Virus record (IMG/VR): IMGVR_UViG_3300000154_000005
DNA length: 20,000 nucleotides
Reading direction: 5' to 3' (one strand)
Source of the DNA: an uncultured virus (IMG/VR IMGVR_UViG_3300000154_000005)
Lineage: Duplodnaviria; Heunggongvirae; Uroviricota; Caudoviricetes
In this document: piece after piece, positions 3,713-19,941 of the stretch
Numbering within the stretch: position 1 is the stretch's first letter
How the letters are laid out: each line of letters starts with the position of its first letter
The notes under the pieces: model-generated
Database searches by the model: none
Seen by the model: the letters and a program-made list of their open reading frames with translations, nothing else
Told to the model about the DNA's origin: nothing
Program-made: the position numbers and the translations under genes

Positions 3713-3727
3713 TAGTAAATACCTTAT

Positions 3728-3844: not shown

Positions 3845-3847
3845 TAC

Positions 3848-4021: not shown

Positions 4022-4031
4022 TATAACCTCA

Positions 4032-5884: not shown

Positions 5885-5888
5885 TTGT

Positions 5889-6095
5889 TTAGGACCAGAA
5901 GAGTTTGTGATAATTCCGAACATTATCCGTAGGGTTCTTAATAAATAACGGTATTGTGATTTCATAATGGCGACAAAATTCATAAGCATTCTCTTCAGTT
6001 GGATTATCATTAAAATTAAGTACTAAATGTTTAAGTTTACTATCTATATTAAATTTAGTTCTTGCAATATTTAATACTACTTTATTAACATGCAT
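5889..6095 (-). CDS. family A paralog (68 aa)
   Basis: TAATG coupling at 6095; NPTEENAY core; tail FIKNPTDNVRNYHKLFWS. Confidence 0.8.
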   Translation of the reverse strand: MHVNKVVLNIARTKFNIDSKLKHLVLNFNDNPTEENAYEFCRHYEITIPLFIKNPTDNVRNYHKLFWS

Positions 6096-6637: not shown

Positions 6638-6901
6638 TTAAACTTCCCATAATAGAGTATGATAATTAGTAACTGCAATTGTCGGTTCCTCAATATATTT
6701 AATTGTGAACTTCCACTTGCGGATTAATTCTAATGCTTCATCTTCATCAACTTCGACATAGTTTAAAAGTTCTATGCAGTCTTCCATTGACACAACATCT
6801 GGATTATTTTGTATTTGTTTATCAGACGGTAATCGACCAAGTTCAAATAGATCGAGATCATATACATGTAATACTCTTAAATCATTCTCATCAATCCACA
6901 T
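6638..6901 (-). CDS. acidic hypothetical protein with family A tail (87 aa)
   Basis: AGGA RBS; tail YIEEPTIAVTNYHTLLWEV. Confidence 0.8.
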   Translation of the reverse strand: MWIDENDLRVLHVYDLDLFELGRLPSDKQIQNNPDVVSMEDCIELLNYVEVDEDEALELIRKWKFTIKYIEEPTIAVTNYHTLLWEV

Positions 6902-6940
6902 ATTAAATTCCTATAATTCTTAAAAATTTATTTTCAATAT

Positions 6941-6952
6941 ATTATATCTATA
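6941..6952 (-). promoter_or_regulatory. putative phage promoter TATAGATATAAT
   Basis: Exact motif copy about 40 nt upstream of the 6901 start. Confidence 0.75.
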
Positions 6953-6970
6953 TATCTTTGGTCCAAAAAT

Positions 6971-6997
6971 AAAAGCCCCTAGGAAAGTCCTAGGAGC
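6971..6997 (-). terminator. intrinsic terminator
   Basis: GCTCCTAGG-ACTTT-CCTAGGGGC-TTTT on the minus strand, right after the stop at 7009. Confidence 0.75.
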
Positions 6998-7008
6998 AGT
7001 TGAAAAGA

Positions 7009-7506
7009 TTAACAAACGCCGGAGATCATCTTTAGAAATTCTTTGCGGGTAATATTAGAGCCACCTTCCCATAATTTTCTTAGAGTAATTGCCTTTCGTT
7101 TGGCTTTATCATTCCCGAATTTTTTAATAGAAAAAGATGCGCTTTTATGAGTAGATGTACTAGGTGTTCCAAAATAAGCTCGCCAGCTATTGTTATTTTT
7201 AGTAAAAAAAACCCCAGCAATCCCACTAGTATTTGTAGAATCTAATCCACTATATTCTAGATGTGATAATTCTTTATGGTTTCTTATAGTACTTTCAACA
7301 GTTGCATCTGGATTTCCAAATGATATATCCATTCGCAAGAATTTCCCTATCTTGAATGCATCTTTTTTATCATACCTTCCATCAAGAGGTATACGATGGT
7401 TTCTATAATTATCGTTTCCTCGTCTCCCATAAGTAACCGATATATAAGGAACCTTATTAATTACCACTTCATTAACTCCGCGCATATGCTGATCTTCAGT
7501 ATTCAT
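7009..7506 (-). CDS. AP2-domain DNA-binding protein (possibly two AP2-like modules, no HNH domain)
   Basis: NTSGIAGVFF...WRAYF...FSIKKFGNDKAKRKAITLR matches the phage/bacterial AP2 pattern. Confidence 0.75.
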   Translation of the reverse strand: MNTEDQHMRGVNEVVINKVPYISVTYGRRGNDNYRNHRIPLDGRYDKKDAFKIGKFLRMDISFGNPDATVESTIRNHKELSHLEYSGLDSTNTSGIAGVFFTKNNNSWRAYFGTPSTSTHKSASFSIKKFGNDKAKRKAITLRKLWEGGSNITRKEFLKMISGVC

Positions 7507-7564
7507 TTTGAGTATACTCCCTGTATTTAAGTTAAGTCTGAAAAATAACCCTATTCTTTACTTT

Positions 7565-7576
7565 ATAATATCTATA
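7565..7576 (-). promoter_or_regulatory. putative phage promoter, variant TATAGATATTAT
   Basis: One-mismatch motif copy upstream of the AP2 gene. Confidence 0.65.
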
Positions 7577-7814
7577 TATAAGTTTTAAAAAATACAGTAA
7601 AAATAAGGACTTATTAGGTCAAAGTGTGAAGAACCAAGAATATATATATATAATATTCCATAACCAAAAGAAATTGAACTAGATAGTATCTATTACTCAT
7701 TATATCTTTCTTAAAGATTTTAAAGTAAACTAAGACAATAAGTTAATTAAATTAAAAAATAAAATACTAAGAATTAATAGAAATAATAAACTTGTACTTA
7801 AGATAATTCAAAGT

Positions 7815-8027
7815 GAGTTGTCTTAACTCTTCCTATTCTAAGGAGCTAAGTAAAAGTAGCACTCTGGTCTCAGAAGTGAAACTACTTAATAGAAGTTAGA
7901 ATAGTTTTACGGGGCATTTTTTTCTAAAAATTTTTTAAGTGGGAGGTCTAACTCAGTATTTGATATAGTTAAAAACTTAACAGCTTTTGTTAGGGTTTCG
8001 CCGTCGCGCTGAAACTCTGTTTTTTTA
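7815..8027. other. structured non-coding element in the strand-switch gap
   Basis: CTATTCTAA (7833-41) and TTAGAATAG (7896-7904) enclose an inner hairpin at 7854-7887; further hairpins at 7815-7829 and 7992-8018, the last followed by a T-run. Confidence 0.45.
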
Positions 8028-8154
8028 AGTTAATAGTTAGATTTATAAAAATTATGTATAATTACATTAAAATTTATGATTTTTTATTGAATATACATAA
8101 AAAATAAAGGAAGAGAGGAATCCCCTGGCCGCTTCCAAGTTTTCAAAACTAATA

Positions 8155-8166
8155 TATAGATATTAT
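8155..8166 (+). promoter_or_regulatory. putative phage promoter, variant TATAGATATTAT
   Basis: Motif copy upstream of the rightward family A array. Confidence 0.65.
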
Positions 8167-8319
8167 TTTAATGAAAGGGTTTTAAATTTAATCTTTTCAT
8201 TTGCCGTGGGAGGCTCAACGACGTGTTTGATGTATCTTCGTTTATATTTTCTTCATCTTTGATAAAATATAGCGAAAATGTATTTTTACAGCTAAATAAA
8301 TTAACGAAGGAAAAATATA

Positions 8320-8559
8320 ATGAAACTAACTCATGATACAGAAAATACAGTAATGCATAGCTATTGGAAAACTGATCCAGAATGGAAAAATAGTTTTATA
8401 TTATTTATGAAAGAGCCTACACTTGAAAATGCTATAAATATATATCATTTAAAATCGAAACATTTTGAGAATAACGCATGGACTTCAATCGGCTTCCTCT
8501 CTTGGTTCGAAGACCCATCTCAAGAACTAATCAACTACGTAAAACTAATGGATTCCTAA
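8320..8559 (+). CDS. family A paralog (79 aa)
   Basis: AAGGA RBS; EPTLENAINIY core; tail WFEDPSQELINYVKLMDS. Confidence 0.85.
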   Translation: MKLTHDTENTVMHSYWKTDPEWKNSFILFMKEPTLENAINIYHLKSKHFENNAWTSIGFLSWFEDPSQELINYVKLMDS

Positions 8560-8797
8560 TGCAATTATCAAAAGAAGTACTTTGCGATTTAATAGATGTT
8601 GATGAAGATGTATGGAAACATGATGATTGGAAAGAAGTGTTTTTAATATTCCACAATAATCCAACATTCGAAAATGCCATAAATATATACCAATATAAAA
8701 TTAATAATTTCGATAATGATATATGGGATAAGGGTTCTTTCTTCACCTGGTTCGAAGACCCATCTCAAGAACTAATCAACTACGTAAAACTAATGGA
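8503..8797 (+). repeat. perfect 50-bp direct repeat (8503-8552 and 8748-8797) encoding the tails of two adjacent genes
   Basis: TGGTTCGAAGACCCATCTCAAGAACTAATCAACTACGTAAAACTAATGGA occurs twice. Confidence 0.95.
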
Positions 8798-8804
8798 GTC
8801 TTAA
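8559..8804 (+). CDS. family A paralog (81 aa)
   Basis: Start moved to the TAATG overlap at 8559; NPTFENAINIY core; tail WFEDPSQELINYVKLMES. Confidence 0.85.
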   Translation: MQLSKEVLCDLIDVDEDVWKHDDWKEVFLIFHNNPTFENAINIYQYKINNFDNDIWDKGSFFTWFEDPSQELINYVKLMES

Positions 8805-9043
8805 TGCACTTACGAGAAGACATAATTACTCAATCCTGGCACTCTACCACTCCAGATGAAATTGAATGGCGAGACGGATTCTTTAAGATGGCAGCCGATC
8901 CAACGTTCGAAAACGCTATAAATATATATCATATGTTTAGACAAAGACATTCAGAACAACAAACATGGAGCAACACATTCTATGCTTGGGTTATAAACCC
9001 TACTCAAGAACTAAAGACATATATAAAACTACAGGAGGTATAA
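8804..9043 (+). CDS. family A paralog (79 aa)
   Basis: TAATG overlap; DPTFENAINIY core; tail WVINPTQELKTYIKLQEV. Confidence 0.85.
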   Translation: MHLREDIITQSWHSTTPDEIEWRDGFFKMAADPTFENAINIYHMFRQRHSEQQTWSNTFYAWVINPTQELKTYIKLQEV

Positions 9044-9312
9044 TGCAAATAAATACAACGGTAAAAAAAGCGACTATTGAATGTCCTGTTGATTATATCC
9101 CCGATAGTCAAAATAGACTAACAGCATCTCTACATATTATGTTAAATTCACATGGTTATTATGAATGGTTTAAGAATAAAGAATCATATAAGTATGAAGA
9201 TATATCAATTTCTGATATAAATAAATTAATACAAGTATATCCAGATATATTGAAGTATTGTAAAGATGTCCCAGAAACAGTCATAACATATCATAAGATG
9301 TGGTGGTCTTAA
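9043..9312 (+). CDS. hypothetical protein with family A tail (89 aa)
   Basis: GGAGG RBS and TAATG overlap at 9043; tail YCKDVPETVITYHKMWWS. Confidence 0.8.
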   Translation: MQINTTVKKATIECPVDYIPDSQNRLTASLHIMLNSHGYYEWFKNKESYKYEDISISDINKLIQVYPDILKYCKDVPETVITYHKMWWS

Positions 9313-9524
9313 TGAAATTATCCGAAGAATCTATTAAGATTATAAATAAAAAATGGAGGAAGAAAAGAAATAATAGGGGGTATAAACAAGCTTTATTGAA
9401 TTTTCACAGAAAACCAAGTGAAGAGAATGCATGTATTGTTTGTAAATTTTTTCCTAAATCTATTAATAATATTAAAGATCCAACACCAGCAGTCGAAACT
9501 TATAATAAATTATATTGGAGTTAA
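9312..9524 (+). CDS. family A paralog, basic N-terminus (70 aa)
   Basis: TAATG overlap; KPSEENAC core; tail NIKDPTPAVETYNKLYWS. Confidence 0.85.
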   Translation: MKLSEESIKIINKKWRKKRNNRGYKQALLNFHRKPSEENACIVCKFFPKSINNIKDPTPAVETYNKLYWS

Positions 9525-9736
9525 TAGTGGAATTATCTGATAAATTTGTTCAAATGTTAAAAGAACCACCACATACTTCTTGGGATATTAAATGGAAATT
9601 ATTACTATTAGAATTTGAGAAAACACCAACTGAAGAGAATGCATATAAAATATGTAGAGTAGCAGACCATACTATAGAAGTAATTAAGAATCCAACAACA
9701 GCAGTCGAAAACTATAATAAATTATATTGGAGTTAA
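9478..9736 (+). repeat. 47-bp direct repeat, 44/47 identical (9478-9524 and 9690-9736), at the 3' ends of two genes
   Basis: ATCCAACA(C/A)CAGCAGTCGAAA(CT/AC)TATAATAAATTATATTGGAGTTAA. Confidence 0.9.
9527..9736 (+). CDS. family A paralog (69 aa, GTG start)
   Basis: GGAG RBS inside the previous tail; TPTEENAY core; tail VIKNPTTAVENYNKLYWS. Confidence 0.85.
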   Translation: MELSDKFVQMLKEPPHTSWDIKWKLLLLEFEKTPTEENAYKICRVADHTIEVIKNPTTAVENYNKLYWS

Positions 9737-9738
9737 AA

Positions 9739-9948
9739 ATGAGATTATCCTATGCATATACATTATTATTAGATAATAAGTCTTGGAGATATTGGGATAA
9801 TATTTGGGTAAATATATTAATAAAATTTAGAGATACCCCAATCGAAGAGAATGCATATGCTATTTGCAGACGTTCTCCTTATGCTATAGAAATGATTGGA
9901 GATCCAACAGAAAATGTAATTAGATATAATAAACTGTACTGGGCGTAA
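9739..9948 (+). CDS. family A paralog (69 aa)
   Basis: GGAG RBS; TPIEENAY core; tail MIGDPTENVIRYNKLYWA. Confidence 0.85.
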   Translation: MRLSYAYTLLLDNKSWRYWDNIWVNILIKFRDTPIEENAYAICRRSPYAIEMIGDPTENVIRYNKLYWA

Positions 9949-9978
9949 AAAACGTCCTTTATTTTTTAAAGGATTTGA

Positions 9979-9990
9979 TATAGATATAAT
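9979..9990 (+). promoter_or_regulatory. putative phage promoter TATAGATATAAT
   Basis: Exact motif copy; no long ORF downstream. Confidence 0.7.
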
Positions 9991-9996
9991 ATAATA

Positions 9997-10215
9997 TCAA
10001 GCTACCGCCACTATACTCTATAAGTCGGTGGCCCGCTATAGTTTAAGTATTATACTGGTGTGAGTTTTAACTTTACCCATGTTAACTTACGGCAGCATTG
10101 TCTCTATTATAAAGATAATGCTTAAAATTATGGTAGTATTTCATGGGGGTAGAGTTGTCCATGAAATGAAGTAATAACTCAGGTTTACTCGAGATAGTAA
10201 CCTGAGTTATTACTT
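9997..10215 (+). ncRNA. candidate ~220-nt structured non-coding RNA
   Basis: Promoter motif upstream. Hairpins at 10007-10032, 10037-10054, 10057-10077, 10094-10122 and 10138-10167, a possible closing stem 10001-10006/10132-10137, and a 17-bp terminal stem. Confidence 0.55.
10169..10215. terminator. perfect 17-bp inverted repeat between convergent units (probably bidirectional)
   Basis: AAGTAATAACTCAGGTT ... AACCTGAGTTATTACTT. Confidence 0.75.
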
Positions 10216-10233
10216 GTAAAATAAAAATATATT

Positions 10234-10584
10234 TTATTTCTTTTCTTGGCCCATCTTCTTGACATCTTTATCAAGATCAAGACCATTAACATAAGAAATA
10301 AGTGTAATAGCAGTATCTACGGCAACTCCGACTTTTTCTAGTCTCTTATTGCGAATAGCTAGATTCTTAGTTGGATCACTATTAATTCCACCGACACTTG
10401 ATGTTGTATTTGAAAAAATGCCAGCTAAAATTGTAGACGCAGACTGAACAATTTGATGTTTTAGTAAAGCTTCTTGTTGAGCTTTCATTTGCATCTTCTG
10501 CATAAATAATTGTTTTTGTTCTTCTGTGGGCTCTGTTTGAGTATCAGACTGTGCTTCGTGGGTAGGTGTATTTTCTTCAGACAT
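10234..10584 (-). CDS. hypothetical protein (116 aa), Q/E/T-rich N-terminus, monocistronic
   Basis: AAGGAG RBS; has its own promoter motif and terminator. Confidence 0.85.
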   Translation of the reverse strand: MSEENTPTHEAQSDTQTEPTEEQKQLFMQKMQMKAQQEALLKHQIVQSASTILAGIFSNTTSSVGGINSDPTKNLAIRNKRLEKVGVAVDTAITLISYVNGLDLDKDVKKMGQEKK

Positions 10585-10639
10585 AGGTTAGGCTCCTTAA
10601 AGGTAAAATGAAAAATCTAAAAATATTAGATTCTAATAT

Positions 10640-10693
10640 ATTATATCTATATATTTTTGATTCAAGCTTTCAATTATCTCATATAGATATAAT
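10640..10693. promoter_or_regulatory. back-to-back divergent promoters (10640-10651 minus; 10682-10693 plus)
   Basis: Two exact TATAGATATAAT copies in opposite orientation, 30 nt apart. Confidence 0.75.
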
Positions 10694-10724
10694 AGAATAT
10701 AATTTACTTATTGGAGTACTAATA

Positions 10725-10937
10725 ATGATCGACTGGAGTAACCCTTCTTTACTTAAAACAAAAACTGGATCTTGGATCCACTATATTACAAAGAAAGGAA
10801 GACATCCTTTCAGACATATTGGTTATATTGAAGATAATAATAAGTTACATGCTTGGGATGATGATGGTAATAGTGTTTATAATGTAGAAGATTATTCAAT
10901 TATAGAACCAATATTTGAAGGTATTCAAAATGAGTGA
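10725..10937 (+). CDS. hypothetical protein (70 aa), probable paralog of the next gene
   Basis: Start moved to ATG 10725 (GGAG RBS, downstream of the promoter); IGYI...LHAWDDDG. Confidence 0.75.
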   Translation: MIDWSNPSLLKTKTGSWIHYITKKGRHPFRHIGYIEDNNKLHAWDDDGNSVYNVEDYSIIEPIFEGIQNE

Positions 10938-11346
10938 TACTCCAATTACACAACCAAAGTTAAATGGATTACCATCTGCTTCAAAACGATTATTAAGACT
11001 AAAAGATCCAATGATGACAGCTAATGGAGAATATACAGCAGATATTATATCTACTCAAGGTAAACTTGGGTATCCATTAATAGGATATATAACAGATTCT
11101 ATTGATGATGGTACTGCACTACATCAGTGGTCATTAGATGGAGAACATAAAGAAGGCAATCCTGAATTAAATTTAGTAAATATTACATCTAATTCTTTTC
11201 ATGTTACCTTATATAGAAATAAGAAGACTGGGGAATTTATGACTGGGGAGAAAAAGGTTTCTATTCCAGTTGATGATGTATTTAATTCAACACATCAACT
11301 TGAGAAAGTTAAAACTATAGAGGTAGATATAGATGAAAGTTTCTAG
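10930..11346 (+). CDS. hypothetical protein (~138 aa)
   Basis: Probable start ATG 10930 after AAGGT; IGYI...LHQWSLDG. Confidence 0.8.
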   Translation: MSDTPITQPKLNGLPSASKRLLRLKDPMMTANGEYTADIISTQGKLGYPLIGYITDSIDDGTALHQWSLDGEHKEGNPELNLVNITSNSFHVTLYRNKKTGEFMTGEKKVSIPVDDVFNSTHQLEKVKTIEVDIDESF

Positions 11347-12817
11347 TATTCGATATGGATTTGCTACAAATAGTAGCAGTAGTCACTCAATTGTTTTTAA
11401 GAAAGATACTTTCTCTGATGATATTGGAGATAGTGATGTTGGTCAATATGGTTGGAATGATTTTACATTAGTTTCACCAATAGCAAAACAACATTATATG
11501 TTATCTTTAATTATAGGACAAACAGAAGAGAACTCTCTTGAACGACGAGCATTAAAAGATACTTTTCGTCGTGTTGGTAAAGAATGTGCTAAACAGTATA
11601 TTGAAGGTGATGAAGGTGAAGTAGAAGGTTTTAAGCCCTCTTATGTTGATCATCAGTCTAGTTTTACATTTCCATATTCACATAGGGATAATAAACCAAA
11701 CTCTAATTTTTTAGATGATGTTATTGCATATATTGGGAATAATGATCAAATTGTTATTCTTGGTGGAAATGATAATGGGGATGGTCATTATTTAAGCGCA
11801 GACACATATTCTGAATACTATGATGAAGATAAAGAAGAATATGTTACTGATGAGTATAAAACTCCTAATGCTTTAGATGCTATTCAACAATATGTTCCAT
11901 ATGGGGCTGCTAAATTAAAAGTAATAGCAAGAAAAGATAAAGGATATTGGGCTGTATTTAATCAAAGTAATGGAACTAAGATACGGTTTACATTAAATGG
12001 TTCACACCCTGATTATATCAAATCGACAACTCCTGAACTAGTAGATGTAAAGATTACAGACTATTGTGAAACTGGTTGTAGTTTTTGTTATCAAGGTAGT
12101 TCTACTAAAGGAAAACATGCTACTTTGGATAATATGTCTCATATTATTAAAACACTTGGAGATGCCAATATTTTTGAAGTAGCTATTGGAGGAGGTGAAC
12201 CAACAACACATCCAGACTTTATACAGATTCTTGAACAGTTTCGGAAACAAGACATTATTCCTAATTTCACTACTCGTAATATTGAATATGTTCGTAAGAA
12301 TTCAAAACAATTAGATGAATTAGGAGCTAATTATGCAGTTAGTATCTCTAATTCTGAAGATATATTAAACACTACTAAAGATGCTCCGCAATATTATAAA
12401 TTTAATTTTCAATATGTAATGGGAAGTAGCTCTATTCATGATTTTTATGATATAATTACACATATGCAAGGATTATCAAATGCAAGAATTACTTTACTCG
12501 ACTTTAAACCTGTTGGTAGAGGAGAATCTTTTGATCCTAATTATTATAATAATTGGCTAATTGGTTTAACTCTTAAATTAGCCGGTGATAAAATTAAAGA
12601 TATTGAGATTGGTATCGATACTGGTCTTGCCCGTAAATATGAAAAAGAATTATTGCATATTGGAATTGATGAAAAATTATTTGAGACAAAAGAAGGTTGT
12701 TTTAGTATGTATATTGATGCTGTAAATATGACAATGGCTAAAGATAGTTATAGTCAAGAAGATAATCAAATCTCACCATTTAATGATAAATGGATTTCAA
12801 CATTTCAAACTTATTAG
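11333..12817 (+). CDS. radical SAM protein with an N-terminal RxGFxTNSSS-motif domain (494 aa)
   Basis: CETGCSFC (CxxxCxxC) and AIGGGEPT motifs; N-terminus IRYGFATNSSSSHS. Confidence 0.9.
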   Translation: MKVSSIRYGFATNSSSSHSIVFKKDTFSDDIGDSDVGQYGWNDFTLVSPIAKQHYMLSLIIGQTEENSLERRALKDTFRRVGKECAKQYIEGDEGEVEGFKPSYVDHQSSFTFPYSHRDNKPNSNFLDDVIAYIGNNDQIVILGGNDNGDGHYLSADTYSEYYDEDKEEYVTDEYKTPNALDAIQQYVPYGAAKLKVIARKDKGYWAVFNQSNGTKIRFTLNGSHPDYIKSTTPELVDVKITDYCETGCSFCYQGSSTKGKHATLDNMSHIIKTLGDANIFEVAIGGGEPTTHPDFIQILEQFRKQDIIPNFTTRNIEYVRKNSKQLDELGANYAVSISNSEDILNTTKDAPQYYKFNFQYVMGSSSIHDFYDIITHMQGLSNARITLLDFKPVGRGESFDPNYYNNWLIGLTLKLAGDKIKDIEIGIDTGLARKYEKELLHIGIDEKLFETKEGCFSMYIDAVNMTMAKDSYSQEDNQISPFNDKWISTFQTY

Positions 12818-12828
12818 GGATTATAACT

Positions 12829-13284
12829 GTGAATTTGCTTTCTATTGATAAAGTATTAGATGTAGCAATGAAAAATTCAAAATCAGATTCCCGTCCAATT
12901 GAAAAACAAGATCAAGTTTATATTGCCGCACTCTGTAAAAAGGCTGGAGAGAACCCAGAAAATATTAAACCCGGAGCACCCATCTATATTGGTCGAACTA
13001 ATTCTGATAAGCAAATGAATATTGTCTTATCTCGATTGCGCCATGGTTTAATGATTTTAACTGGAGAAGAAGATATTCATTTTGTTGCTAAACTTCCAGT
13101 TGGAGATAAAGGAATTGGAGTATGTACTATTATACATTATGAATTGAATATGAATATGCATGATGGTAGCTTCTTTCCATATAATAACCCAATAGGCGAA
13201 GTAATACAAAAATTACAAAAACTTGGTCAAGACTGTTCTAAAAAACAATGGCCTGGCCGTAAAAAGGTCTGCAGAAGACCTTAA
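12829..13284 (+). CDS. hypothetical protein (~151 aa; start uncertain)
   Basis: ORF track 12790..13284; GTG at 12829 follows AGGGA and avoids overlap. Confidence 0.75.
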   Translation: MNLLSIDKVLDVAMKNSKSDSRPIEKQDQVYIAALCKKAGENPENIKPGAPIYIGRTNSDKQMNIVLSRLRHGLMILTGEEDIHFVAKLPVGDKGIGVCTIIHYELNMNMHDGSFFPYNNPIGEVIQKLQKLGQDCSKKQWPGRKKVCRRP

Positions 13285-13293
13285 CTTCCCACT

Positions 13294-13333
13294 AACGGCG
13301 CAGTCGGCTTATACTAGCGATTGCGTCTGTTTT
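13294..13333 (+). terminator. stem-loop with U-tail
   Basis: GGCGCAGTCG...CGATTGCGTC followed by TGTTTT; another short hairpin AAGGTCT/AGACCTT at 13264-13282. Confidence 0.6.
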
Positions 13334-13354
13334 AATTTAATAGGAAATTTTTAA

Positions 13355-14113
13355 ATGCCAGATTTTAATTATAGTGATCCATTATTAAAAGAATATATTG
13401 AAGTTATTACTAATGATTTTTCAAAAGATAAAACATCACTATCTTTAAATACTCTTGAACGATTTACTGGACAATCTCTACCGCCCTCAGCCAGAAGACA
13501 TAATCGCTGGTGGACAATAGAAGATCAACGTATGTCTATTACTTTATTCAGTATGGGGTATAAAGTACGAACTCCCAAAGATATATTTCCTAATACTAAT
13601 AAAGATAGAACCAAAGAAGAAACTATTATAAATGTTGACATTATTAAAAGGGGATCACATTACGATACACCTAAACAAAAAAGTAATCGCCCATCAGCAT
13701 GGATTAATGGTTGTACAGTTAAAGGCCGACCTGATGTTTTAGAAAAACCTTCAAGTGGTAAAAATTTTGGTGTTCGGTGGAATATTAATTATAATCCAGG
13801 TGTTGATCTATGTAAATTCTTCTCTATACATTCTTGTGGAACTATTGAAGCAGCAGAACATGAAGCATTGAAGTTTAAGAAATATCTATTCGACTATCTT
13901 GATAAACATGAATGTCTTTTGCCTCGTGATGAACAATTAGCAGATTACAATAACTATATTAATCCAATTATTCACGAACAAGAAGTAGTAACACATGAGC
14001 AAGAAGCTCAATATGCACCAGGGCAAGTATATGATATTATTATTAATGGGATTGATGCTTTAAATAAAGAAGAGAAAGTATCCTTGATTACACATATTGC
14101 GAGAACATTATAA
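13355..14113 (+). CDS. putative DNA-binding protein: DUF7662-like N-domain plus AP2-like domain (252 aa)
   Basis: LSLNTLERFTGQSLPPSARRHNRWW...GYKV; FGVRWN...KFFSIHSCGTIEAAEHEALKFK. Confidence 0.6.
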   Translation: MPDFNYSDPLLKEYIEVITNDFSKDKTSLSLNTLERFTGQSLPPSARRHNRWWTIEDQRMSITLFSMGYKVRTPKDIFPNTNKDRTKEETIINVDIIKRGSHYDTPKQKSNRPSAWINGCTVKGRPDVLEKPSSGKNFGVRWNINYNPGVDLCKFFSIHSCGTIEAAEHEALKFKKYLFDYLDKHECLLPRDEQLADYNNYINPIIHEQEVVTHEQEAQYAPGQVYDIIINGIDALNKEEKVSLITHIARTL

Positions 14114-14145
14114 ATATCAATTGGAGTGATATTATATTAGGTATA

Positions 14146-14406
14146 ATGGTTGCACTAACTATTATAGTTATGATAATATTTATGTATAAAAGTGATACAT
14201 CTGAAGATGTTCTTAGATATAAGCATGAAGAACAAAAATTACAACAAATAGAAAATATTAAAAAAGAAGCACTTAATTCAAACAGACCTATTAACGAAGT
14301 ATCATGTATACTTGGATTATTTAACAAAGAACCACTACTTCTAGAGCGTTATTGTTCTAGAGATACACCACAACCCCAAGGAGACTTATCAGATGACGAA
14401 GGTTAA
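14146..14406 (+). CDS. small protein with an N-terminal membrane anchor
   Basis: MVALTIIVMIIFMY hydrophobic start followed by a charged segment. Confidence 0.7.
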   Translation: MVALTIIVMIIFMYKSDTSEDVLRYKHEEQKLQQIENIKKEALNSNRPINEVSCILGLFNKEPLLLERYCSRDTPQPQGDLSDDEG

Positions 14407-14794
14407 ATCAAAATACAAACCATTACATACTTACCTTTCTGAAAAGACTACACAGCGTGTTAAATTATCAATGGAAGAACTAGAGAATATTCTAGGATTT
14501 ACATTGCCTAAGAGCGCTACTGATCATATGAACGCATTATTCTGGTCTAATGATCCACATCCAGATAAAGATGCTCCTGGAAAATATCATCATTACCATA
14601 CTCTAATGTGGTTGAGCTCTGGTTATATGGTATCCTCTGTAGATTTCTACAGTTCGAAACACTCAGTTACCTTTACTCGTATTGGTTCTAATTTTATTGA
14701 ACTTCTACCATATTTATCAGACACTGAGTTAGCAGAAACTAATTCAGGTATCGCTAAAGTCCTTAGCGATCGTCTATTGATGCGTGTCGCTTGA
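14393..14794 (+). CDS. DUF7662-like protein (133 aa)
   Basis: SKYKPLHTYL...LSMEELENILGFTLPKSA...FWSND...WLSSGYMV...VTFTR; family name recalled, not searched. Confidence 0.7.
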   Translation: MTKVKSKYKPLHTYLSEKTTQRVKLSMEELENILGFTLPKSATDHMNALFWSNDPHPDKDAPGKYHHYHTLMWLSSGYMVSSVDFYSSKHSVTFTRIGSNFIELLPYLSDTELAETNSGIAKVLSDRLLMRVA

Positions 14795-15036
14795 GCGGTT
14801 GTGTAAAGAAGGAAGTATTTGAATGGGTTTGTGATAAAACTCAACATACATTATATCATGAATTAAATACAACAGATGTTGTTTGTTTTGTCTATTATAG
14901 ATATAAAGAAACAGAATTATGGAAAGAAGCTTTTGATTGGGGTATCGATACTATTACTGAAGATAGTATTGAGATTACTCTTGATATGACTTCAACTCCA
15001 AAAAATACACAACTAAAACTAGTCGTTATCGGTTAG
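14791..15036 (+). CDS. hypothetical protein (81 aa, TTG start)
   Basis: TTGA overlap with the previous stop; followed by a terminator. Confidence 0.65.
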   Translation: MSGCVKKEVFEWVCDKTQHTLYHELNTTDVVCFVYYRYKETELWKEAFDWGIDTITEDSIEITLDMTSTPKNTQLKLVVIG

Positions 15037-15042
15037 TTTACC

Positions 15043-15074
15043 GTGGTGAGATCATCAAGGTCTCACCACTTTTT
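15043..15074 (+). terminator. intrinsic terminator
   Basis: GTGGTGAGA...TCTCACCAC-TTTTT. Confidence 0.85.
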
Positions 15075-15085
15075 ATTTCGTCTTA

Positions 15086-15097
15086 TATAGATATAAT
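15086..15097 (+). promoter_or_regulatory. putative phage promoter TATAGATATAAT
   Basis: Exact motif copy between the terminator and the family B array. Confidence 0.75.
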
Positions 15098-15131
15098 ACA
15101 ATATATTCACATTCTATATATAGGGGTTAAT

Positions 15132-15404
15132 ATGGATCGGGATGATATTACAGTAATAACTGAGATAGCAAGGATAACACTAGATATACAATATATTGAT
15201 CCTTTTGGTAATTGTTATTACAGAAAAGATAAGAAATTACATAGAGAAGAAGGCCCTGCTATTATAAGAGGAAATATTAATAAGGATGATCTATTTTACA
15301 TACATGGGAGGAGTCTTAGTAAAGAAGATTGGAGAAATTGGATTAAAAAACATTCAAAGTTGCCGTTAAATATAATTACTAAAGCATTACTGGAAAATAT
15401 ATGA
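15132..15404 (+). CDS. LHREDGPA-motif protein with family B tail
   Basis: LHREEGPAII; ends IITKALLENI. Confidence 0.8.
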   Translation: MDRDDITVITEIARITLDIQYIDPFGNCYYRKDKKLHREEGPAIIRGNINKDDLFYIHGRSLSKEDWRNWIKKHSKLPLNIITKALLENI

Positions 15405-15748
15405 TATCTTCTCAAAAAAGGGTTCACTTAGATACAATAAAGAATAGTATGTATTATATAATAGAAGTAATGACAAATACTAGATTATTTAAGATAAAGA
15501 AAAGTATAAAATATAATGAAGTAAAAATTAAAATATCTCATATAAATAAAGATTCAATATCAGTTGTTTTATTATACAATCTACAACAATTAATAAATAC
15601 TGGAATAACAGATAAAAGAGCAAGAGTAGAAGATATAACCATAAATAAATTGGGGAGGGAAGAAGCCCAATCTCTTCTTGATACTCTTTATGATATTACT
15701 AGTTATGAAAAGAATATATTAACTCGTATAATATTGGAGGATTCTTAG
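15401..15748 (+). CDS. family B 'RLF' paralog (115 aa)
   Basis: NTRLFKI; ends ITSYEKNILTRIILEDS; ATGA overlap. Confidence 0.8.
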   Translation: MISSQKRVHLDTIKNSMYYIIEVMTNTRLFKIKKSIKYNEVKIKISHINKDSISVVLLYNLQQLINTGITDKRARVEDITINKLGREEAQSLLDTLYDITSYEKNILTRIILEDS

Positions 15749-15749
15749 A

Positions 15750-16310
15750 ATGTTTAGTTTAAAATCGTTTCATGATATGTGGATAAAGTCTTATGAAGAA
15801 AATCCAATCATAGAACCAGGAATACCCGTATTCGCAATACCGGCTATGCCTCGTAGTATATCAACACCCCCTTTTATATCTCCTAGAGAGACTGGTGAAT
15901 TAGTATATAGATCTAGATTAAGTAGATTAAATAAGATAAAAAATGACGTAACTATGATAGCTAAAATGATACTGCCAAATAGATTATTTGCAATCGATTA
16001 TAACCATACAATACAATGGAACAGTATTAAACCATTTGATTGTTATATTCGAATATTTGTAGATCATGAAGCTAATACTTCTAATAATCGTATGTTTATT
16101 CAACGAAGAATGATGCAAAACTCTGTAAAATGGAAGATTCCAATTATGAGAGGTGCAATTGTTCAAACTGGAGATATGAGAGGGATTAGAATAAAGATAG
16201 TGTTTGAAGAATTAAATAAAGCAGCAGTTTTACATCTTTTAGATACTATCCCTTCTATTACAGTTAAAGAAACGATTAGATTAAATAGAGTGATATTGGA
16301 GCAATCATGA
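15750..16310 (+). CDS. family B 'RLF' paralog with Pro-rich N-terminal extension (186 aa)
   Basis: PNRLFAI; ends ITVKETIRLNRVILEQS. Confidence 0.8.
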   Translation: MFSLKSFHDMWIKSYEENPIIEPGIPVFAIPAMPRSISTPPFISPRETGELVYRSRLSRLNKIKNDVTMIAKMILPNRLFAIDYNHTIQWNSIKPFDCYIRIFVDHEANTSNNRMFIQRRMMQNSVKWKIPIMRGAIVQTGDMRGIRIKIVFEELNKAAVLHLLDTIPSITVKETIRLNRVILEQS

Positions 16311-16675
16311 CTGAAAAAGAGATAATTAGAAATACAAGAACTATATGTCGAAATATACTAGGCAACCGACTTTTCATATTAGATACTTCTAGAATTAATA
16401 ATACTATGTATTTAACTATATGGTATCTACAATCTGAAGTTATTACTATTATGAGAGGTAATATTCTACTTGGAACTATTCCAACTGATGAATATTTGAA
16501 ACATAAAATAGAAGATATGTTTAGAGATAGTAAAACATATAATAAAATTAAGCATTTAATTATTAATACTAATATATTAGAGAAAAAACAAATAATGGAT
16601 ATATTCCGAATAATACCAAATCTTTCCAATAAAGAAACTAATATGTTAAATAGACATCTATTGGAACAATCGTGA
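16307..16675 (+). CDS. family B 'RLF' paralog (122 aa)
   Basis: GNRLFIL; ends LSNKETNMLNRHLLEQS. Confidence 0.8.
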   Translation: MTEKEIIRNTRTICRNILGNRLFILDTSRINNTMYLTIWYLQSEVITIMRGNILLGTIPTDEYLKHKIEDMFRDSKTYNKIKHLIINTNILEKKQIMDIFRIIPNLSNKETNMLNRHLLEQS

Positions 16676-17034
16676 CAACTGATCAATTAATAAAAGAAGT
16701 TAAAAAACTAGTTCAGAAGACTATCGGATCTAATCTGTTTATAGTAAAATATACTACAACAACAGATTATAATATTACGGCTATTTCTATCCGGTATCTA
16801 CCGATTAAAGATTTGAATTTTGAATCCTATATTAATATATCAGAATATTGGTATAATATAATTAGGAGGGATATTCTAGACCCTGATGTATTTTTCGGTG
16901 CTGATATAATAAATATATCAGTTAGAGCAGATATATTGAATAATTGTCAAACTAGAGATATGTTAAATAGAAGTAAAAATCTTTCTTCAGAAGAAGAGAA
17001 TTCACTCAGAAGACATCTATTGGAGCAATCGTGA
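16672..17034 (+). CDS. family B 'RLF' paralog (120 aa)
   Basis: GSNLFIV; ends LSSEEENSLRRHLLEQS; GTGA overlap. Confidence 0.8.
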   Translation: MTTDQLIKEVKKLVQKTIGSNLFIVKYTTTTDYNITAISIRYLPIKDLNFESYINISEYWYNIIRRDILDPDVFFGADIINISVRADILNNCQTRDMLNRSKNLSSEEENSLRRHLLEQS

Positions 17035-17381
17035 TATCGAGACGAGAAGCGGCAGAAGAAAAAGTTATTACATATGTTACTAAAATGATCAAAATTACAC
17101 TAGAAACTGAATTATTTAGAGTATGTTTAGATGAGAATAAGTATTCTAGTAATATGGATATAACTATTTTTACAAATGAGTTTGATGATTATGATTTAGA
17201 TTTTAGAAAAATATTAGATATTATGCATGGATTATTAAATATTTGGGATAATGGAGTTGTTATAAATATAAAAACTTCAGAATTGAGGGGAGAAGATGCT
17301 AGGTATATTTTAGATAATATTAAAAATATAACAAGAAAAGAGCGAAATGAATTAATTGGATTAATATTGGAGGAATCATGA
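17031..17381 (+). CDS. family B 'RLF' paralog (116 aa)
   Basis: ETELFRV; ends ITRKERNELIGLILEES. Confidence 0.8.
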   Translation: MISRREAAEEKVITYVTKMIKITLETELFRVCLDENKYSSNMDITIFTNEFDDYDLDFRKILDIMHGLLNIWDNGVVINIKTSELRGEDARYILDNIKNITRKERNELIGLILEES

Positions 17382-17641
17382 CATTTAATGAAGATAGTAT
17401 AAAACATAGTCGTCGTAATGTACAAGGTGTCGCTACTGTAGATGGTGGTTTAATTTGGTGTGATGATAAAGGAGAACTACATCGAGAAGATGGCCCGGCT
17501 ATGATTACTAATAATAAATTCGAAATATATTACAATCACGGTAATATTATGACTAAGAAACAATGGATACAATGGCTTAAATCTGGTAATCCGAGTATTT
17601 CAATTGATAAAATTACTCGTCTAATATTGGAGAATTCATGA
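17378..17641 (+). CDS. LHREDGPA-motif protein with family B tail (87 aa)
   Basis: GELHREDGPAMI; ends KITRLILENS. Confidence 0.85.
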   Translation: MTFNEDSIKHSRRNVQGVATVDGGLIWCDDKGELHREDGPAMITNNKFEIYYNHGNIMTKKQWIQWLKSGNPSISIDKITRLILENS

Positions 17642-17946
17642 TGAAAATATATCTCGATGATGAAAGAACTCCATATGATAATACTTGGATACTATTAAAA
17701 ACCCCTAAAGAAGTAATAACATTACTAAAACATCCAGAAAGGATATCTGTAATTAGTTTAGATCATGACTTAGGAGACGATGAAGGTATTGGTACTGGTT
17801 ATGATGTTTTATTATACATTGAAGAACAAGTACACTTAAATAAAAGTTTTAAATGCCCCAAATTAAAAGTTCATAGTGCTAATTCTTCTGCCCGTCTAAA
17901 GATGGAAGCTGCTATTAAATCTATTAAGAAATGTCTTAATATATGA
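17638..17946 (+). CDS. cyclic-phosphate-processing receiver (REC)-like domain protein
   Basis: KIYLDDERTP...ISLDHDLG...TGYDVL...VHSAN signature. Confidence 0.8.
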   Translation: MMKIYLDDERTPYDNTWILLKTPKEVITLLKHPERISVISLDHDLGDDEGIGTGYDVLLYIEEQVHLNKSFKCPKLKVHSANSSARLKMEAAIKSIKKCLNI

Positions 17947-18263
17947 ATAATACAACTGTACGCACTAAACCCAATATTAAAGGTGAATTAGACCAAGATG
18001 GAGATATGATATGGACTGATTCTGAAGGTAGATGGCATCGTGAAGATGGTCCAGCTATTATATATCCAGATGGGCATGTTAATTGGTTCTATCATGGGTG
18101 GTTACATCGAGAAGATGGTCCAGCTGTTGATGAATCATATGATCTTAGATGGTATGTCTATGGAATAGATATTTCAAAAGATGAGTGGCTTCAATGGCTT
18201 AAAGAAGCTGCCTCTAGTTTAGGTCGAAATACAGAATTAAAACTCATACTGGAGCATAGTTAA
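17943..18263 (+). CDS. LHREDGPA-repeat protein (two repeats) with family B tail
   Basis: WHREDGPA and LHREDGPA; ends ELKLILEHS. Confidence 0.85.
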   Translation: MNNTTVRTKPNIKGELDQDGDMIWTDSEGRWHREDGPAIIYPDGHVNWFYHGWLHREDGPAVDESYDLRWYVYGIDISKDEWLQWLKEAASSLGRNTELKLILEHS

Positions 18264-18598
18264 TGCCAAATGACATATACGATGAAGAATTATTTATTCC
18301 CAATTTAAATGGGGATGAATGTAAATATGGTGATCGTGTATGGACTGATTCTGATGGATTATTTCATAGAGAAAATGGACCAGCAATTATTTATAAAACT
18401 GGTGCCGAATATTGGTATTGTAGAGGCGTGTTACATAGAGAAGATGGTCCTGCTTGCATTTGGAAAAGTGGAAATATTAATGAATGGTATATTGATGGTG
18501 AATATATAACGAAAGATGAATGGATTCAATACTTAAGAGATGGTAAATCCTCTCTGGATCAAAAGACAATCAACAGAATCATACTGGAGAATAGTTAA
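18263..18598 (+). CDS. LHREDGPA-repeat protein (two repeats) with family B tail
   Basis: FHRENGPA and LHREDGPA; ends TINRIILENS. Confidence 0.85.
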   Translation: MPNDIYDEELFIPNLNGDECKYGDRVWTDSDGLFHRENGPAIIYKTGAEYWYCRGVLHREDGPACIWKSGNINEWYIDGEYITKDEWIQYLRDGKSSLDQKTINRIILENS

Positions 18599-18600
18599 TA

Positions 18601-18939
18601 ATGAGTAAACATTATACAATTGACATATATCCACCTAATCTTAAAGGTGAAACTGATGAAGATGGTGACCATTTAATATGGACAAATACATACGGAGAAC
18701 TACATAGAGAAGATGGGTATGCTTTTGTAAATACAAGTACAGGAAATAAATATTGGTTTAATAATGGGTTATTACATAGAGAAGATGGACCAGCTATAAT
18801 ATTTAATAATGATAATCCAGATAGATGGTATATTATTGATAAAGAAATATCTAAAATTGAATGGATACAGAGGCTTAAAGATGGTAAATCATCTTTGGAT
18901 CAAAAAACAATAACAAAACTAATTTTAAAATGGTCATAA
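18601..18939 (+). CDS. LHREDGPA-repeat protein (two repeats), last gene of the array
   Basis: LHREDGYA and LHREDGPA; ends TITKLILKWS. Confidence 0.85.
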   Translation: MSKHYTIDIYPPNLKGETDEDGDHLIWTNTYGELHREDGYAFVNTSTGNKYWFNNGLLHREDGPAIIFNNDNPDRWYIIDKEISKIEWIQRLKDGKSSLDQKTITKLILKWS

Positions 18940-18944
18940 CAAAT

Positions 18945-18977
18945 AAAGAGTAACGTATATTATTACGATTACTCTTT
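18945..18977. terminator. hairpin between convergent genes (probably bidirectional)
   Basis: AAAGAGTAA-CGTA...TACG-A-TTACTCTTT with A/T flanks. Confidence 0.7.
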
Positions 18978-18992
18978 TATTTCTTTATTTCT

Positions 18993-19160
18993 TTATGTCT
19001 TTTTTCTACAAAAGAATATAACACCTTTCTTTGATGGTCTTTTAAATGGCATTTCTTGTTGAAATTTGAAATGTGGCGGTACTCCTTCTGAGTAAAATAG
19101 GTTTTGTATACAGCCTTCCAGGAACAAATAGTTGTTCTTCCGAATACGGAATGCTTTCAT
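18993..19160 (-). CDS. small basic protein (55 aa), below the ORF-track size cutoff
   Basis: MKAFRIRKNNYLFLEGCIQNLFYSEGVPPHFKFQQEMPFKRPSKKGVIFFCRKKT; AAGGA RBS; promoter motif at 19197-19208. Confidence 0.7.
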   Translation of the reverse strand: MKAFRIRKNNYLFLEGCIQNLFYSEGVPPHFKFQQEMPFKRPSKKGVIFFCRKKT

Positions 19161-19196
19161 AGTAAAAATCCTTTGTAAAAGAGGAAATAGTATTTT

Positions 19197-19278
19197 ATTA
19201 TATCTATATCAAAACTAGATAAAAGTAAAAAATAGCTTGTATGTTTTTATTTACGTAGCAGGAATATATAGATATAAT
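19197..19278. promoter_or_regulatory. divergent promoter pair (19197-19208 minus; 19267-19278 plus)
   Basis: Two exact TATAGATATAAT copies in opposite orientation. Confidence 0.75.
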
Positions 19279-19374
19279 ATATTGGGGCCTAAATATTAAT
19301 ATTATTTTTTAAAGTCTTATACACTATATAGGATTAGTAACATTCTTAAATGATATAAAAAGGTATATAATTTA

Positions 19375-19893
19375 ATGAAACAACTTATCACTGAAACTAA
19401 AACAAAAATTATTGAGTATGCTGGAGGTGGGGCTGCATATCAAGAATCACAAGATCTAGTATCATCAAGTGGAAAAACAATATTAACAAACCCAAAATAT
19501 CTATTAAGTGGGTCCATTGTTCTTCCAAGTAACGCTACTAAATTTACATTAATAAGAGCATATGCTGCTAGTTATGTAAATGTGATATCAAGAGATGGAT
19601 CTCCTACATTTCTAAAGATTATTGTTGATGATGATATGGACGCTACTAATGTTGAAGTAGTAGAAACAGCATTCACACTATATACTTCAATGTTTATGTA
19701 TTCTAATCCAGATCTTCCAATTATTATTGCACTTGGTAATGGAAATTTGGATGTAGATCCTATAACTGGAAATCTATTACCCACTCTTGGTGCACAAGAA
19801 CAATCAATTGAATATACTATTGCTTCACATAATTTAGAGTTCTCTGATGTTGACTTTAGTGCATTTAGTGCAGTAACTGGTAATTCTTTCTAA
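19375..19893 (+). CDS. hypothetical protein (172 aa), possibly a virion component
   Basis: AAGGT RBS; composition rich in Ser, Thr, Ala and Gly; no family recognised. Confidence 0.8.
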   Translation: MKQLITETKTKIIEYAGGGAAYQESQDLVSSSGKTILTNPKYLLSGSIVLPSNATKFTLIRAYAASYVNVISRDGSPTFLKIIVDDDMDATNVEVVETAFTLYTSMFMYSNPDLPIIIALGNGNLDVDPITGNLLPTLGAQEQSIEYTIASHNLEFSDVDFSAFSAVTGNSF

Positions 19894-19923
19894 TATAGAA
19901 TCACCACGTTTTCAAAGATTTGA

Positions 19924-19935
19924 TATAGATATTAT
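19924..19935 (+). promoter_or_regulatory. putative phage promoter, variant TATAGATATTAT
   Basis: Motif copy followed directly by two hairpins. Confidence 0.65.
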
Positions 19936-19941
19936 ATATAA

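Follow-up and report, generated by a model that had tools for sequence, protein, structure and literature searches.

Unrelated small proteins of an uncultured marine jumbo phage share a stop-anchored C-terminal helix that overlaps the candidate ribosome site of the next gene

The DNA analyzed here is a stretch of 20,000 nucleotides (nt), hereafter the window, from the uncultured virus IMGVR_UViG_3300000154_000005; it corresponds to the minus strand of positions 44122-64121 on a single contig of 106,480 bp with 30% G+C. Positions 15132-18939 of the window hold 11 same-strand open reading frames (ORFs), namely five proteins with LHREDGPA-type repeats (LH1-5), five proteins of a second type, here called RLF (RLF1-5), and one cREC_REC gene. 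Our subject is the short C-terminal tail with which ten of these proteins end. An earlier sequence-only reading had described a ten-gene array in which two unrelated body types share this tail. The ten tailed genes do lie where that reading had placed them, but the array counts 11 members, with the tail-less cREC_REC gene inside it. All ten tails were recovered exactly as listed (KALLENI, RIILEDS, RVILEQS, RHLLEQS, RHLLEQS, GLILEES, RLILENS, KLILEHS, RIILENS, and KLILKWS).

The array lies on the plus strand and opens with LH1 (15132-15404, 90 amino acids (aa)), which carries one LHREEGPA repeat and the tail ITKALLENI; it overlaps the next gene by ATGA, and its GGAA core at 15392-15395 lies 5 nt ahead of the next start. 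The RLF block follows. RLF1 (15401-15748, 115 aa, tail LTRIILEDS) has GGAGG at 15736-15740, 9 nt before the ATG at 15750. RLF2 (15750-16310, 186 aa, tail LNRVILEQS), which carries an N-terminal extension and an internal insertion, has GGAG at 16298-16301 and an ATGA overlap. RLF3 (16307-16675, 122 aa, tail LNRHLLEQS) has GGAA at 16663-16666 and RLF4 (16672-17034, 120 aa, GTG start, tail LRRHLLEQS) has GGAG at 17022-17025, both with a GTGA overlap, and RLF5 (17031-17381, 116 aa, GTG start, tail LIGLILEES) has GGAGG at 17369-17373 and an ATGA overlap. Next come LH2 (17378-17641, 87 aa, one LHREDGPA repeat, tail ITRLILENS, GGAG at 17629-17632) and the cREC_REC gene (17638-17946, 102 aa), which ends KKCLNI without a tail, has ATGA overlaps on both sides and lacks a Shine-Dalgarno core. 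This gene matches PF20274 over profile positions 1-87 of 88 (E 2.5e-23, 83 bits against a cut-off of 27) and phrog_1479 (E 1.4e-26). LH3 (17943-18263, 106 aa, two repeats, tail ELKLILEHS) ends in a TAATG junction, with GGAG at 18251-18254, 8 nt before the next start; LH4 (18263-18598, 111 aa, two repeats, tail INRIILENS) has GGAG at 18586-18589, 11 nt before the ATG at 18601; and LH5 (18601-18939, 112 aa, tail ITKLILKWS), the last gene of the operon, has Lys in place of Glu and no Shine-Dalgarno core.

The GTG starts of RLF4 (16672) and RLF5 (17031) lie within TCGTGA, and the N-terminal helices that follow align with those of ATG-started paralogs; both starts look real. An alternative genetic code or read-through was discarded, as the frame past the RLF2 TGA hits a stop after 4 codons. 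An antisense ORF of 136 aa (16276-16686, minus strand) is longer than the sense gene RLF3 beneath it. The RLF2 insertion (IPIMRGAIVQTGDMRG, 16139-16185) is 72% identical over 46 nt to an N-terminal motif of LH3 (PNIKGELDQDGDMIW, 17969-18015; repeat families D5 and D6), a match that could be a mosaic or chance.

The description of the array as having one promoter motif, tight coupling and one terminator held up. Positions 15085-15098 (+), 34 nt ahead of the start codon of LH1, exactly match the promoter-type motif ATATAGATATAATA and lie just downstream of a terminator-like hairpin (15043-15069, +; 11 pairs, 6 G-C, loop of 5, then the T-run TTTTTATTTC) that closes the preceding operon. All ten gaps between the genes range from -4 to +2 nt. 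At the far end, a terminator-like hairpin with a T-rich tail closes the array (18941-18982, +; -13.4 kcal/mol, z -4.85, equaled by 0 of 200 shuffles); it contains a bulge, so a simple hairpin scan misses it. The strand is free of further genes for 435 nt downstream of LH5. Within 15132-18939 we found no exact copy of ATATAGATATAATA and no terminator-like hairpin, and a count of sigma-70-like promoters inside the array (32 against 35.5 expected) was uninformative. The array, with its 11 small genes, is one early-type operon on a fragment of an uncultured marine jumbo phage. The motif occurs in seven exact copies across both strands of the window (within 2867-19936; 6940-, 9978+, 10639-, 10681+, 15085+, 19196-, and 19266+), and in 17 copies when up to two mismatches are allowed, against 4.2 expected. 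At least three of the copies (15085, 19196, and 19266) stand directly upstream of first genes, and ATATAGATATAATA is probably the phage's early or middle promoter.

The bodies of the two protein types are unrelated, as the sequence-only reading had noted. Profile-profile comparison of the five RLF proteins with seven LHREDGPA proteins by hhalign aligned only the last 35 columns, the tail alone, with an E value of 0.021 and a probability of 2.2%, and full-length homology between the bodies was ruled out on this basis. The folds predicted by AlphaFold, from shallow alignments of 5 sequences for RLF3 and 7 for LH4, differ as well. RLF3 was modeled as an alpha/beta protein (predicted local distance difference test (pLDDT) 87) with a helix, four strands, a helix and a strand forming a body of residues 1-92, followed by helices at 93-102 and 108-121. 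LH4 (pLDDT 86) was modeled as beta-hairpin repeats followed by helices at 84-92 and 100-110. In both models the terminal helix reaches the last or second-last residue, and the block-mean pLDDT of the tail is 80-94. The claim of a similar amphipathic helix in both types therefore stands insofar as both models end in a helix-loop-helix; likeness across the types is confined to roughly the final 10 codons. Of the two helices in the LH proteins, the first is also present in LHREDGPA relatives that lack the tail and, because these keep it after their last repeat, we regard it as part of the LHREDGPA domain.

Searches of the databases returned little for either body. None of the ten tailed proteins scored above the cut-off in Pfam or PHROGs. 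For RLF3, Foldseek gave no PDB or BFVD match at E <=0.001, matches in the ESM Atlas all stayed below 0.9, and the best VIA-align match (Z 8.2) scored no higher than common alpha/beta arrangements do. For LH1-5 no Pfam MORN model was matched at E values up to 1, and the best Pfam match was DUF6745 (E 4.3e-4, 20.1 bits, under the cut-off of 27).

The relatives of the array fall almost entirely on the LH side. A profile of the ten tails matched 20 of 1.84 billion representative proteins at E <=0.001: eight from the window, nine other LHREDGPA proteins, and three that we discounted (P0031 for its repetitive sequence, P0028 and P0029 as long proteins with a partial match). No body type besides LHREDGPA and those of the window itself appeared among them. 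The nine end in SSL(S/D/N)xxx(V/I)x(R/K)(L/I)ILE(W/N/H)S or a close variant, one of them in ILENI. In all, the tail SSLxxxxxx(R/K)(L/I)ILExS is restricted to a sub-family made up of the five LH proteins of the window and 11 others (P0002, P0003, and nine more). Eight more distant LHREDGPA relatives and one unrelated high-GC locus (L007), found in a metagenome scan with LH4, lack the tail. More broadly, HR(E/D)DGPA relatives with 2-9 repeats occur in phages and bacteria. An RLF profile searched against 5.8 billion proteins returned the window's own proteins alone, and a search with a G-array protein returned only itself, with no relatives outside this phage.

We then considered what the DNA of the tail encodes besides protein. 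Seven of the ten junctions have a gap of -4 (five ATGA, two GTGA), and one each has -1 (TAATG), +1, and +2. At nine of the ten, a GGAG, GGAGG or GGAA core stands 4-11 nt ahead of the next start; the junction from the cREC_REC gene to LH3 has no core. Counting residues back from the stop, codons -4 and -3 read YTG GAR (Leu-Glu) in nine of the ten tails, which spells TGGAG or TGGAA. The suggestion that the tail could be a cassette junction is in this respect well founded, given that nine of the ten tails hold the core at these codons and that the next start overlaps or abuts the stop. In five of the nine core-bearing tails the final Ser codon, TCA or TCG, is itself part of TCATGA or TCGTGA. The tenth tail, that of LH5, reads tta aaa tgg tca taa. 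A sixth LHREDGPA paralog of 136 aa lies outside the window (L001:15378-15785, minus strand), 65 nt from the next gene; this uncoupled protein ends ITYNILKYN, with Ile-Leu kept and Lys at -3 for Glu.

The same signature was seen across the contig. All contig-wide counts come from a greedy longest-ORF map (212 ORFs, 93% coverage) and not from a gene finder; family kinship was kept in all of them, p values are nominal, and some of the 34 ORFs whose gap is below -4 may have miscalled starts. Position -4 is Leu in 54 of 98 coupled genes, and 30 of these 54 use TTG or CTG, compared with 12% genome-wide (TTG 9%, CTG 3%); the main codons are TTG (21), TTA (13), CTA (10), and CTG (9). Glu occupies -3 in 37, encoded by GAG in 26 and by GAA in 11, against 18% GAG genome-wide. 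Codon choice at -4 and -3 therefore reveals selection at the nucleotide level. Moreover, 18 of 168 sense TGGAG occurrences in called genes begin exactly 11 nt before the stop, and in 21 of 28 occurrences GGAG begins at the third base of a codon.

This nucleotide signal carries the likeness between the two types. Unmasked hidden Markov models (HMMs) of the tails gave weak cross-type matches (E 0.07-0.64) over the last 8-13 residues. With the last four residues masked, the top 22 matches of the RLF-tail HMM contained no LH protein, and the reverse comparison likewise, so that the cross-type similarity reported before masking disappears, which is the outcome that the sequence-only reading had named as refuting it. 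Cross-type DNA identity is elevated solely in the last ~30 nt. The same short ending is found in other viruses: the pattern ATATTGGAGNANTCATGA occurs in 62 IMG/VR loci, never twice in any one of them, and in 17 of these, of which about 10 are distinct, it is flanked on either side by ORFs of at least 40 codons. At about 10 distinct gene ends, ILE(E/K/N/Q)S-stop with an overlapping ATGA start follows unrelated upstream residues. The pentapeptide ILE(E/K/N/Q)S at a stop-start overlap thus arises independently.

The tail is far from confined to this array. The motif [ILMFV]x[KR]xxLxxx-stop closes 58 of the 212 contig ORFs, against 0.7 expected from its internal rate (104 in 31,303 positions); after shuffling of the last 30 residues in 1000 trials, the mean was 1.2 and the maximum 6. 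RLF3 stands outside the 58 through a known miscall in the map, which chose the antisense ORF described above over it. Similarly ending small proteins occur in at least 10 other arrays on both strands, with ends such as ALTKLILERS, SITKRILELL, QITRQILEKS, ALTKYILETS, AINKVILEDS, and DMLKFKLSLL. Among the 98 coupled genes, Lys or Arg occupies -7 in 51, Ile or Leu occupies -9 in 55, and Asn occupies -11 in 25. The motif is found on 0 of 29 Pfam-matched proteins of at least 140 aa, on 9 of 38 such proteins without a Pfam match, and on 49 of 145 smaller ORFs. It is present in 41 of 86 genes with a gap of -4 to +2, compared with 10 of 80 with a gap of at least 13 or no downstream gene. As controls, the first 50 kb each of T4 and AR9 were run through the same pipeline, which found the motif on 0 of 86 and 0 of 61 ORFs, respectively; among the ORFs of the 62 IMG/VR loci it was found on 1 of 496. 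In summary, about a quarter of the genes of this phage, ORFans without exception, end in the tail, which is a genome-wide feature and not specific to the array.

This bears on a second group of small genes in the window, called family A (8320-9948, plus strand, and 6095-6901, minus strand), whose proteins end LMDS, LMES, LQEV, MWWS, LYWS, LYWS, and LYWA. These different endings had led the sequence-only reading to propose more than one C-terminal address tag. The codons do not support this proposal: cta atg gag tct (LMES), cta cag gag gta (LQEV), and tta tat tgg agt (LYWS) contain TGGAG or GGAGG as well, either a codon later or in a different frame (ATG GAG, CAG GAG G, TGG AGT). Family A carries the same core, and the same stop-anchored pattern recurs in the other arrays just mentioned. 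Family A would accordingly be no second tag; the endings appear to follow one genome-wide format with local dialects.

How can nucleotide and protein signals in the same residues be reconciled? The reading we prefer, to which we assign a probability of about 0.5, is that the tail is a standard C-terminal helix that acts as the structural host for a ribosome site. Each tailed protein would end in an alpha-helix whose last four codons double as the hand-over to the next cistron. Two codons past Leu-Glu comes the stop, which overlaps with or directly adjoins the next ATG or GTG, and a ribosome terminating gene n would have its anti-Shine-Dalgarno sequence paired 6 nt behind the stop and could restart on gene n+1 (termination-reinitiation). 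Overlapping gene pairs provide a basis for this: a Shine-Dalgarno sequence inside the upstream gene restricts the C-terminal residues of its protein and promotes reinitiation, according to the sections of Huber et al. 2019 (PMC6728339) considered here. The coupling junction would then account for Glu, for the choice of TTG or CTG for Leu, and for part of the final Ser (TCATGA or TCGTGA), and Glu would be lost in LH5 because the last gene of the operon has no next cistron to hand over to. The rest of the tail ([I/L] at -9, [T/N] at -8, [K/R] at -7, [I/L] at -5, and Leu at -4) would be a protein-level amphipathic helix built around the fixed Leu-Glu, with Lys or Arg at -7 placed to pair with Glu at -3. 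Of the 84 genes with Leu at -4, 43 have Glu or Asp at -3, and 40 of these have Lys or Arg at -7, compared with 24 of the other 41 (Fisher p 2.4e-4, uncorrected for kinship), an association compatible with an i/i+4 salt bridge or with co-inheritance. Codon bias, register and spread of the tail are read directly from the DNA; from these we infer actual coupling, the salt bridge and a helix without a reader of its own.

A number of observations weigh against this preferred reading, and they are equally compatible with a tail that has its own function. A Shine-Dalgarno site is not by itself enough to impose the tail. Coupled junctions without a 4-nt core keep Leu at -4 in 22 of 40, Lys or Arg at -7 in 22 of 40, and Ile or Leu at -9 in 23 of 40, and those with a core do so in 32, 29, and 32 of 58, respectively. 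Glu at -3 alone differs by core, with 9 of 40 without and 28 of 58 with one. Many of the 'core-less' junctions still read TTGGAA, TTGAG or TTAGAG. The core begins in the codon of Leu -4 in only 17 of the 54 coupled genes that have this Leu, and its spacer to the start ranges from 5 to 11 nt. Leu at -4 is found in 26 of 46 genes at gap -4, 17 of 21 at gap -1, and 8 of 19 at gaps 0 to 2; across all these gaps the register is set by the stop and not by the next start. Accordingly anchored are the counts by offset from the stop, with 58 motifs at offset 0 and 0, 1, and 0 at offsets 1-3. Family A, despite its shifted core, keeps Leu (once Met) at -4 and Lys at -5. The 50 kb of T4 contain 32 coupled genes, of which 2 have Leu at -4, and here as in AR9 the motif is lacking (0/86 and 0/61). 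In RLF3 the fold matches are confined to residues 1-92, which leaves the two tail helices as an appendage, and in the 16 tailed LH proteins identity is 60% over the last 16 residues, 51% over positions -29 to -17, and 37% in the body.

The codons add a further point of this kind. Between arrays, tail similarity decays to background by position -14, giving a length of ~12 residues. Positions with the same residue share codons about as often as genome codon usage predicts, and the codons of Arg at -7 are varied (AGA, CGT, AGG, and others). It follows from these two points that residues -12 to -5 are selected as protein. A nucleotide motif upstream of the Shine-Dalgarno sequence was rejected as the cause of Lys/Arg at -7, given that the Arg codons follow genome usage and codon identity equals expectation.

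Such observations could be explained if the helix of the 58 ORFs, all of them ORFans and of several unrelated folds, were a proteome-wide label ([I/L]-[T/N]-[K/R]-x-[I/L/K]-L-E-x-S with dialects), either read in trans or acting in the exit tunnel, with the Shine-Dalgarno site as a secondary passenger. We regard this as a tentative possibility. In its first form, the tail would be a protein tag shared by dozens of small early proteins with little else in common and read by a single component of phage or host, such as a hub, a factor for packaging or localization, or a protease or adaptor that removes them on time; the Shine-Dalgarno site would merely ride in the last codons of the tag. The exact anchoring at the stop with a register independent of the distance to the next start, conservation between arrays at the level of amino acids and not of codons, the position of the RLF3 tail helices outside the known-fold match, and a tail more conserved than the body among LH relatives of other phages all favor a tag. 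So do its presence on at least two unrelated folds and on 58 of 212 ORFs, yet on none of the 29 Pfam-recognizable proteins, and its absence from T4, AR9, and all but 1 of 496 other viral ORFs. The difficulties are of several kinds. A Pfam scan of 67 contig proteins of at least 140 aa and the 11 array proteins, covering about 106 of ~285 kb of the genome, revealed no peptide-binding or protease family. The tail is modeled as an ordered helix (pLDDT 80-94) and not as a free peptide, its polar E-x-S end is unlike the non-polar ends of ssrA-type degrons, and the motif is far commoner in coupled genes (41/86 vs 10/80), which a pure tag would not require. A precedent for one peptide on diverse phage proteins is the T4 capsid targeting sequence, as treated in the sections of Rao and Black 2010 (PMC3012670) considered here. 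On balance, we view a tag read in trans as doubtful.

Alternatively, the last 10-12 residues could act in cis, slowing or shaping termination from within the exit tunnel such that the ribosome is retained and restarts. Anchoring to the stop codon, enrichment in tightly coupled genes, conservation at the amino-acid level and a length of ~12 residues, which corresponds to the upper tunnel, are what a nascent peptide of this sort would show. However, known arrest peptides differ greatly in sequence, genes that end an operon retain most of the motif (LH5, ITKLILKWS), and tail-less genes such as the cREC_REC gene are ATGA-coupled as well. This explanation therefore seems highly improbable to us.

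A different explanation is that the junction serves mainly for recombination. Tail, ribosome site and start would then form a cassette boundary for in-frame duplication, swap or capture, and unrelated bodies would share the tail by descent of the boundary DNA. The DNA around LH2, which follows the RLF block, offers some evidence for this. Its last 54 nt are 70% identical to those of RLF1, as close as the other three listed RLF tails are to RLF1 at 61-69% (repeat family D3, which comprises the tails of LH2 and RLF1, 2, 3, and 5, with RLF4 outside), and its last 30 nt match RLF tails at 16-24 positions, compared with 14-19 for other LH tails. Yet the match between LH2 and RLF1 upstream of the junction (14 of 18 nt, positions -30 to -12) is marginal given 25 cross pairs. 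In RLF1, NILTRIILEDS resembles the consensus NEVTRLILEWS of the LH sub-family of other phages, and RLF bodies occur in this phage alone. In addition, 48 nt at 18551-18598, the tail of LH4, reached 6-7 times the summed depth of their surroundings across four marine runs. Short contigs (49-286 nt and 1272 nt) with differing sequence on either flank account for the excess, which indicates that the community holds several more LH genes with near-identical tail DNA. A format uniform in one genome and lacking in T4 also suggests copying. Opposed to this, codon identity between arrays is no higher than genome usage predicts, which gives no hint that DNA was exchanged recently. Each of the 62 IMG/VR loci has the exact junction pattern only once, and the array does not differ between the three runs that have full-length contigs and the pieces from the fourth, with no cassette seen to be gained or lost. 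A search for cassette variants in the sequencing runs found none, and the listed joints with sides of 22-52 nt fit paralogs. We thus consider recombination an unlikely main cause of the shared tail.

The genomic setting of the array is that of a large phage. Genes for replication and nucleotide metabolism are present on the contig, as are pieces of a multisubunit RNA polymerase, and no structural genes were found in the Pfam scan. In the protein collection, proteins of the window are also encoded on contigs as long as 284,614 bp, which implies that the 106-kb contig is a fragment of a ~285-kb jumbo phage; the related ~284-kb contig encodes the LHREDGPA relative P0003. The contig was recovered from four runs of one marine metagenome study. 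No DNA match to it was found among 50,697 phage records, and its RNA polymerase beta' shows 24% identity to the best phage match. No relatives by LH4, RLF3 or RNA polymerase beta' were detected among viral contigs, no RNA sequencing runs were listed with the array stretch, and the window contains no tRNAs.

Other genes in the window include an unsplit RNA polymerase beta' of 1017 aa (2-2248, minus strand) that runs off the window edge, an AP2-domain protein (7009-7506, minus strand; PF00847, E 3.4e-10), and a radical-SAM protein of 494 aa (11333-12817, plus strand). Other parts of the contig encode two more RNA polymerase beta' fragments and a beta subunit. Outside the window, a LAGLIDADG endonuclease gene splits the large subunit of ribonucleotide reductase in two (L004:15108-18217, plus strand). 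A further region (L001:2433-14470) encodes QueC, a PTPS/QueD-like protein, a radical-SAM protein and an amidotransferase, a set that suggests 7-deazaguanine DNA modification.

The tail is a case of dual coding in which TGGAG and a stop-start overlap write Leu-Glu-x-Ser onto unrelated proteins, a result that can be mistaken for a sorting tag. When C-terminal motifs are mined from the 'dark matter' of phage proteomes, junction codons should therefore be masked first. What stands after masking is an unusual stop-anchored helix, selected as protein, on 58 of 212 ORFs. If this helix does have a reader, dozens of early proteins of unknown function in an uncultured jumbo phage could be approached through one handle; without a reader, the helix would illustrate the extent to which selection for tight coupling can standardize the ends of young genes.

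Our literature search, which covered papers without their supplements, found no description of such a motif or of a phage-wide C-terminal label, and no mention of 'LHREDGPA'. Several known systems nevertheless invite comparison. The capsid targeting sequence of T4 is N-terminal and is removed by the prohead protease. In contrast, the present tail is C-terminal and helical, overlaps the next ribosome site, and sits on presumed early genes. What the two have in common is that a short peptide is the sole shared part of diverse, fast-evolving small proteins (Rao and Black 2010, PMC3012670, in the sections considered here). The LH bodies, tandem beta-hairpin repeats with the motif LHREDGPA, may resemble the MORN1 structures 6t68 and 6t69; MORN1 chains were the best Foldseek rows for LH4, although the matches are weak (E 0.19-0.8, template modeling (TM) scores 0.28-0.35; best E 0.19 and TM 0.35). 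C-terminal degrons of the ssrA/ClpX type have non-polar last residues such as LAA, unlike the ends found here (ENI, EDS, EQS, EQS, EQS, EES, ENS, EHS, ENS, and KWS). The mobile promoter-early stem-loop (PeSL) cassettes of T4-type phages, which Arbiol and colleagues reportedly described in 2010, are said to consist of an intergenic promoter and hairpin and to have been proposed as units of modular shuffling. They resemble the array in placing repeated boundary sequences between small early genes. They differ from it in that the array has no intergenic DNA of more than 2 nt and neither promoter motif nor hairpin between its genes, its repeated boundary being coding sequence. T4 itself has many overlaps too, yet nothing like the uniform tail. 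A further parallel is with the overlapping gene pairs in the sections of Huber et al. 2019 (PMC6728339) considered here, which share with the array the ATGA, GTGA or TAATG overlaps and an intra-ORF Shine-Dalgarno core a few nt before the restart. Unlike in those pairs, the core of the array lies in fixed codons and a fixed frame, is anchored to the stop and sits inside a conserved helix, and the pattern extends ~8 residues further upstream as protein and recurs on 58 of 212 ORFs.

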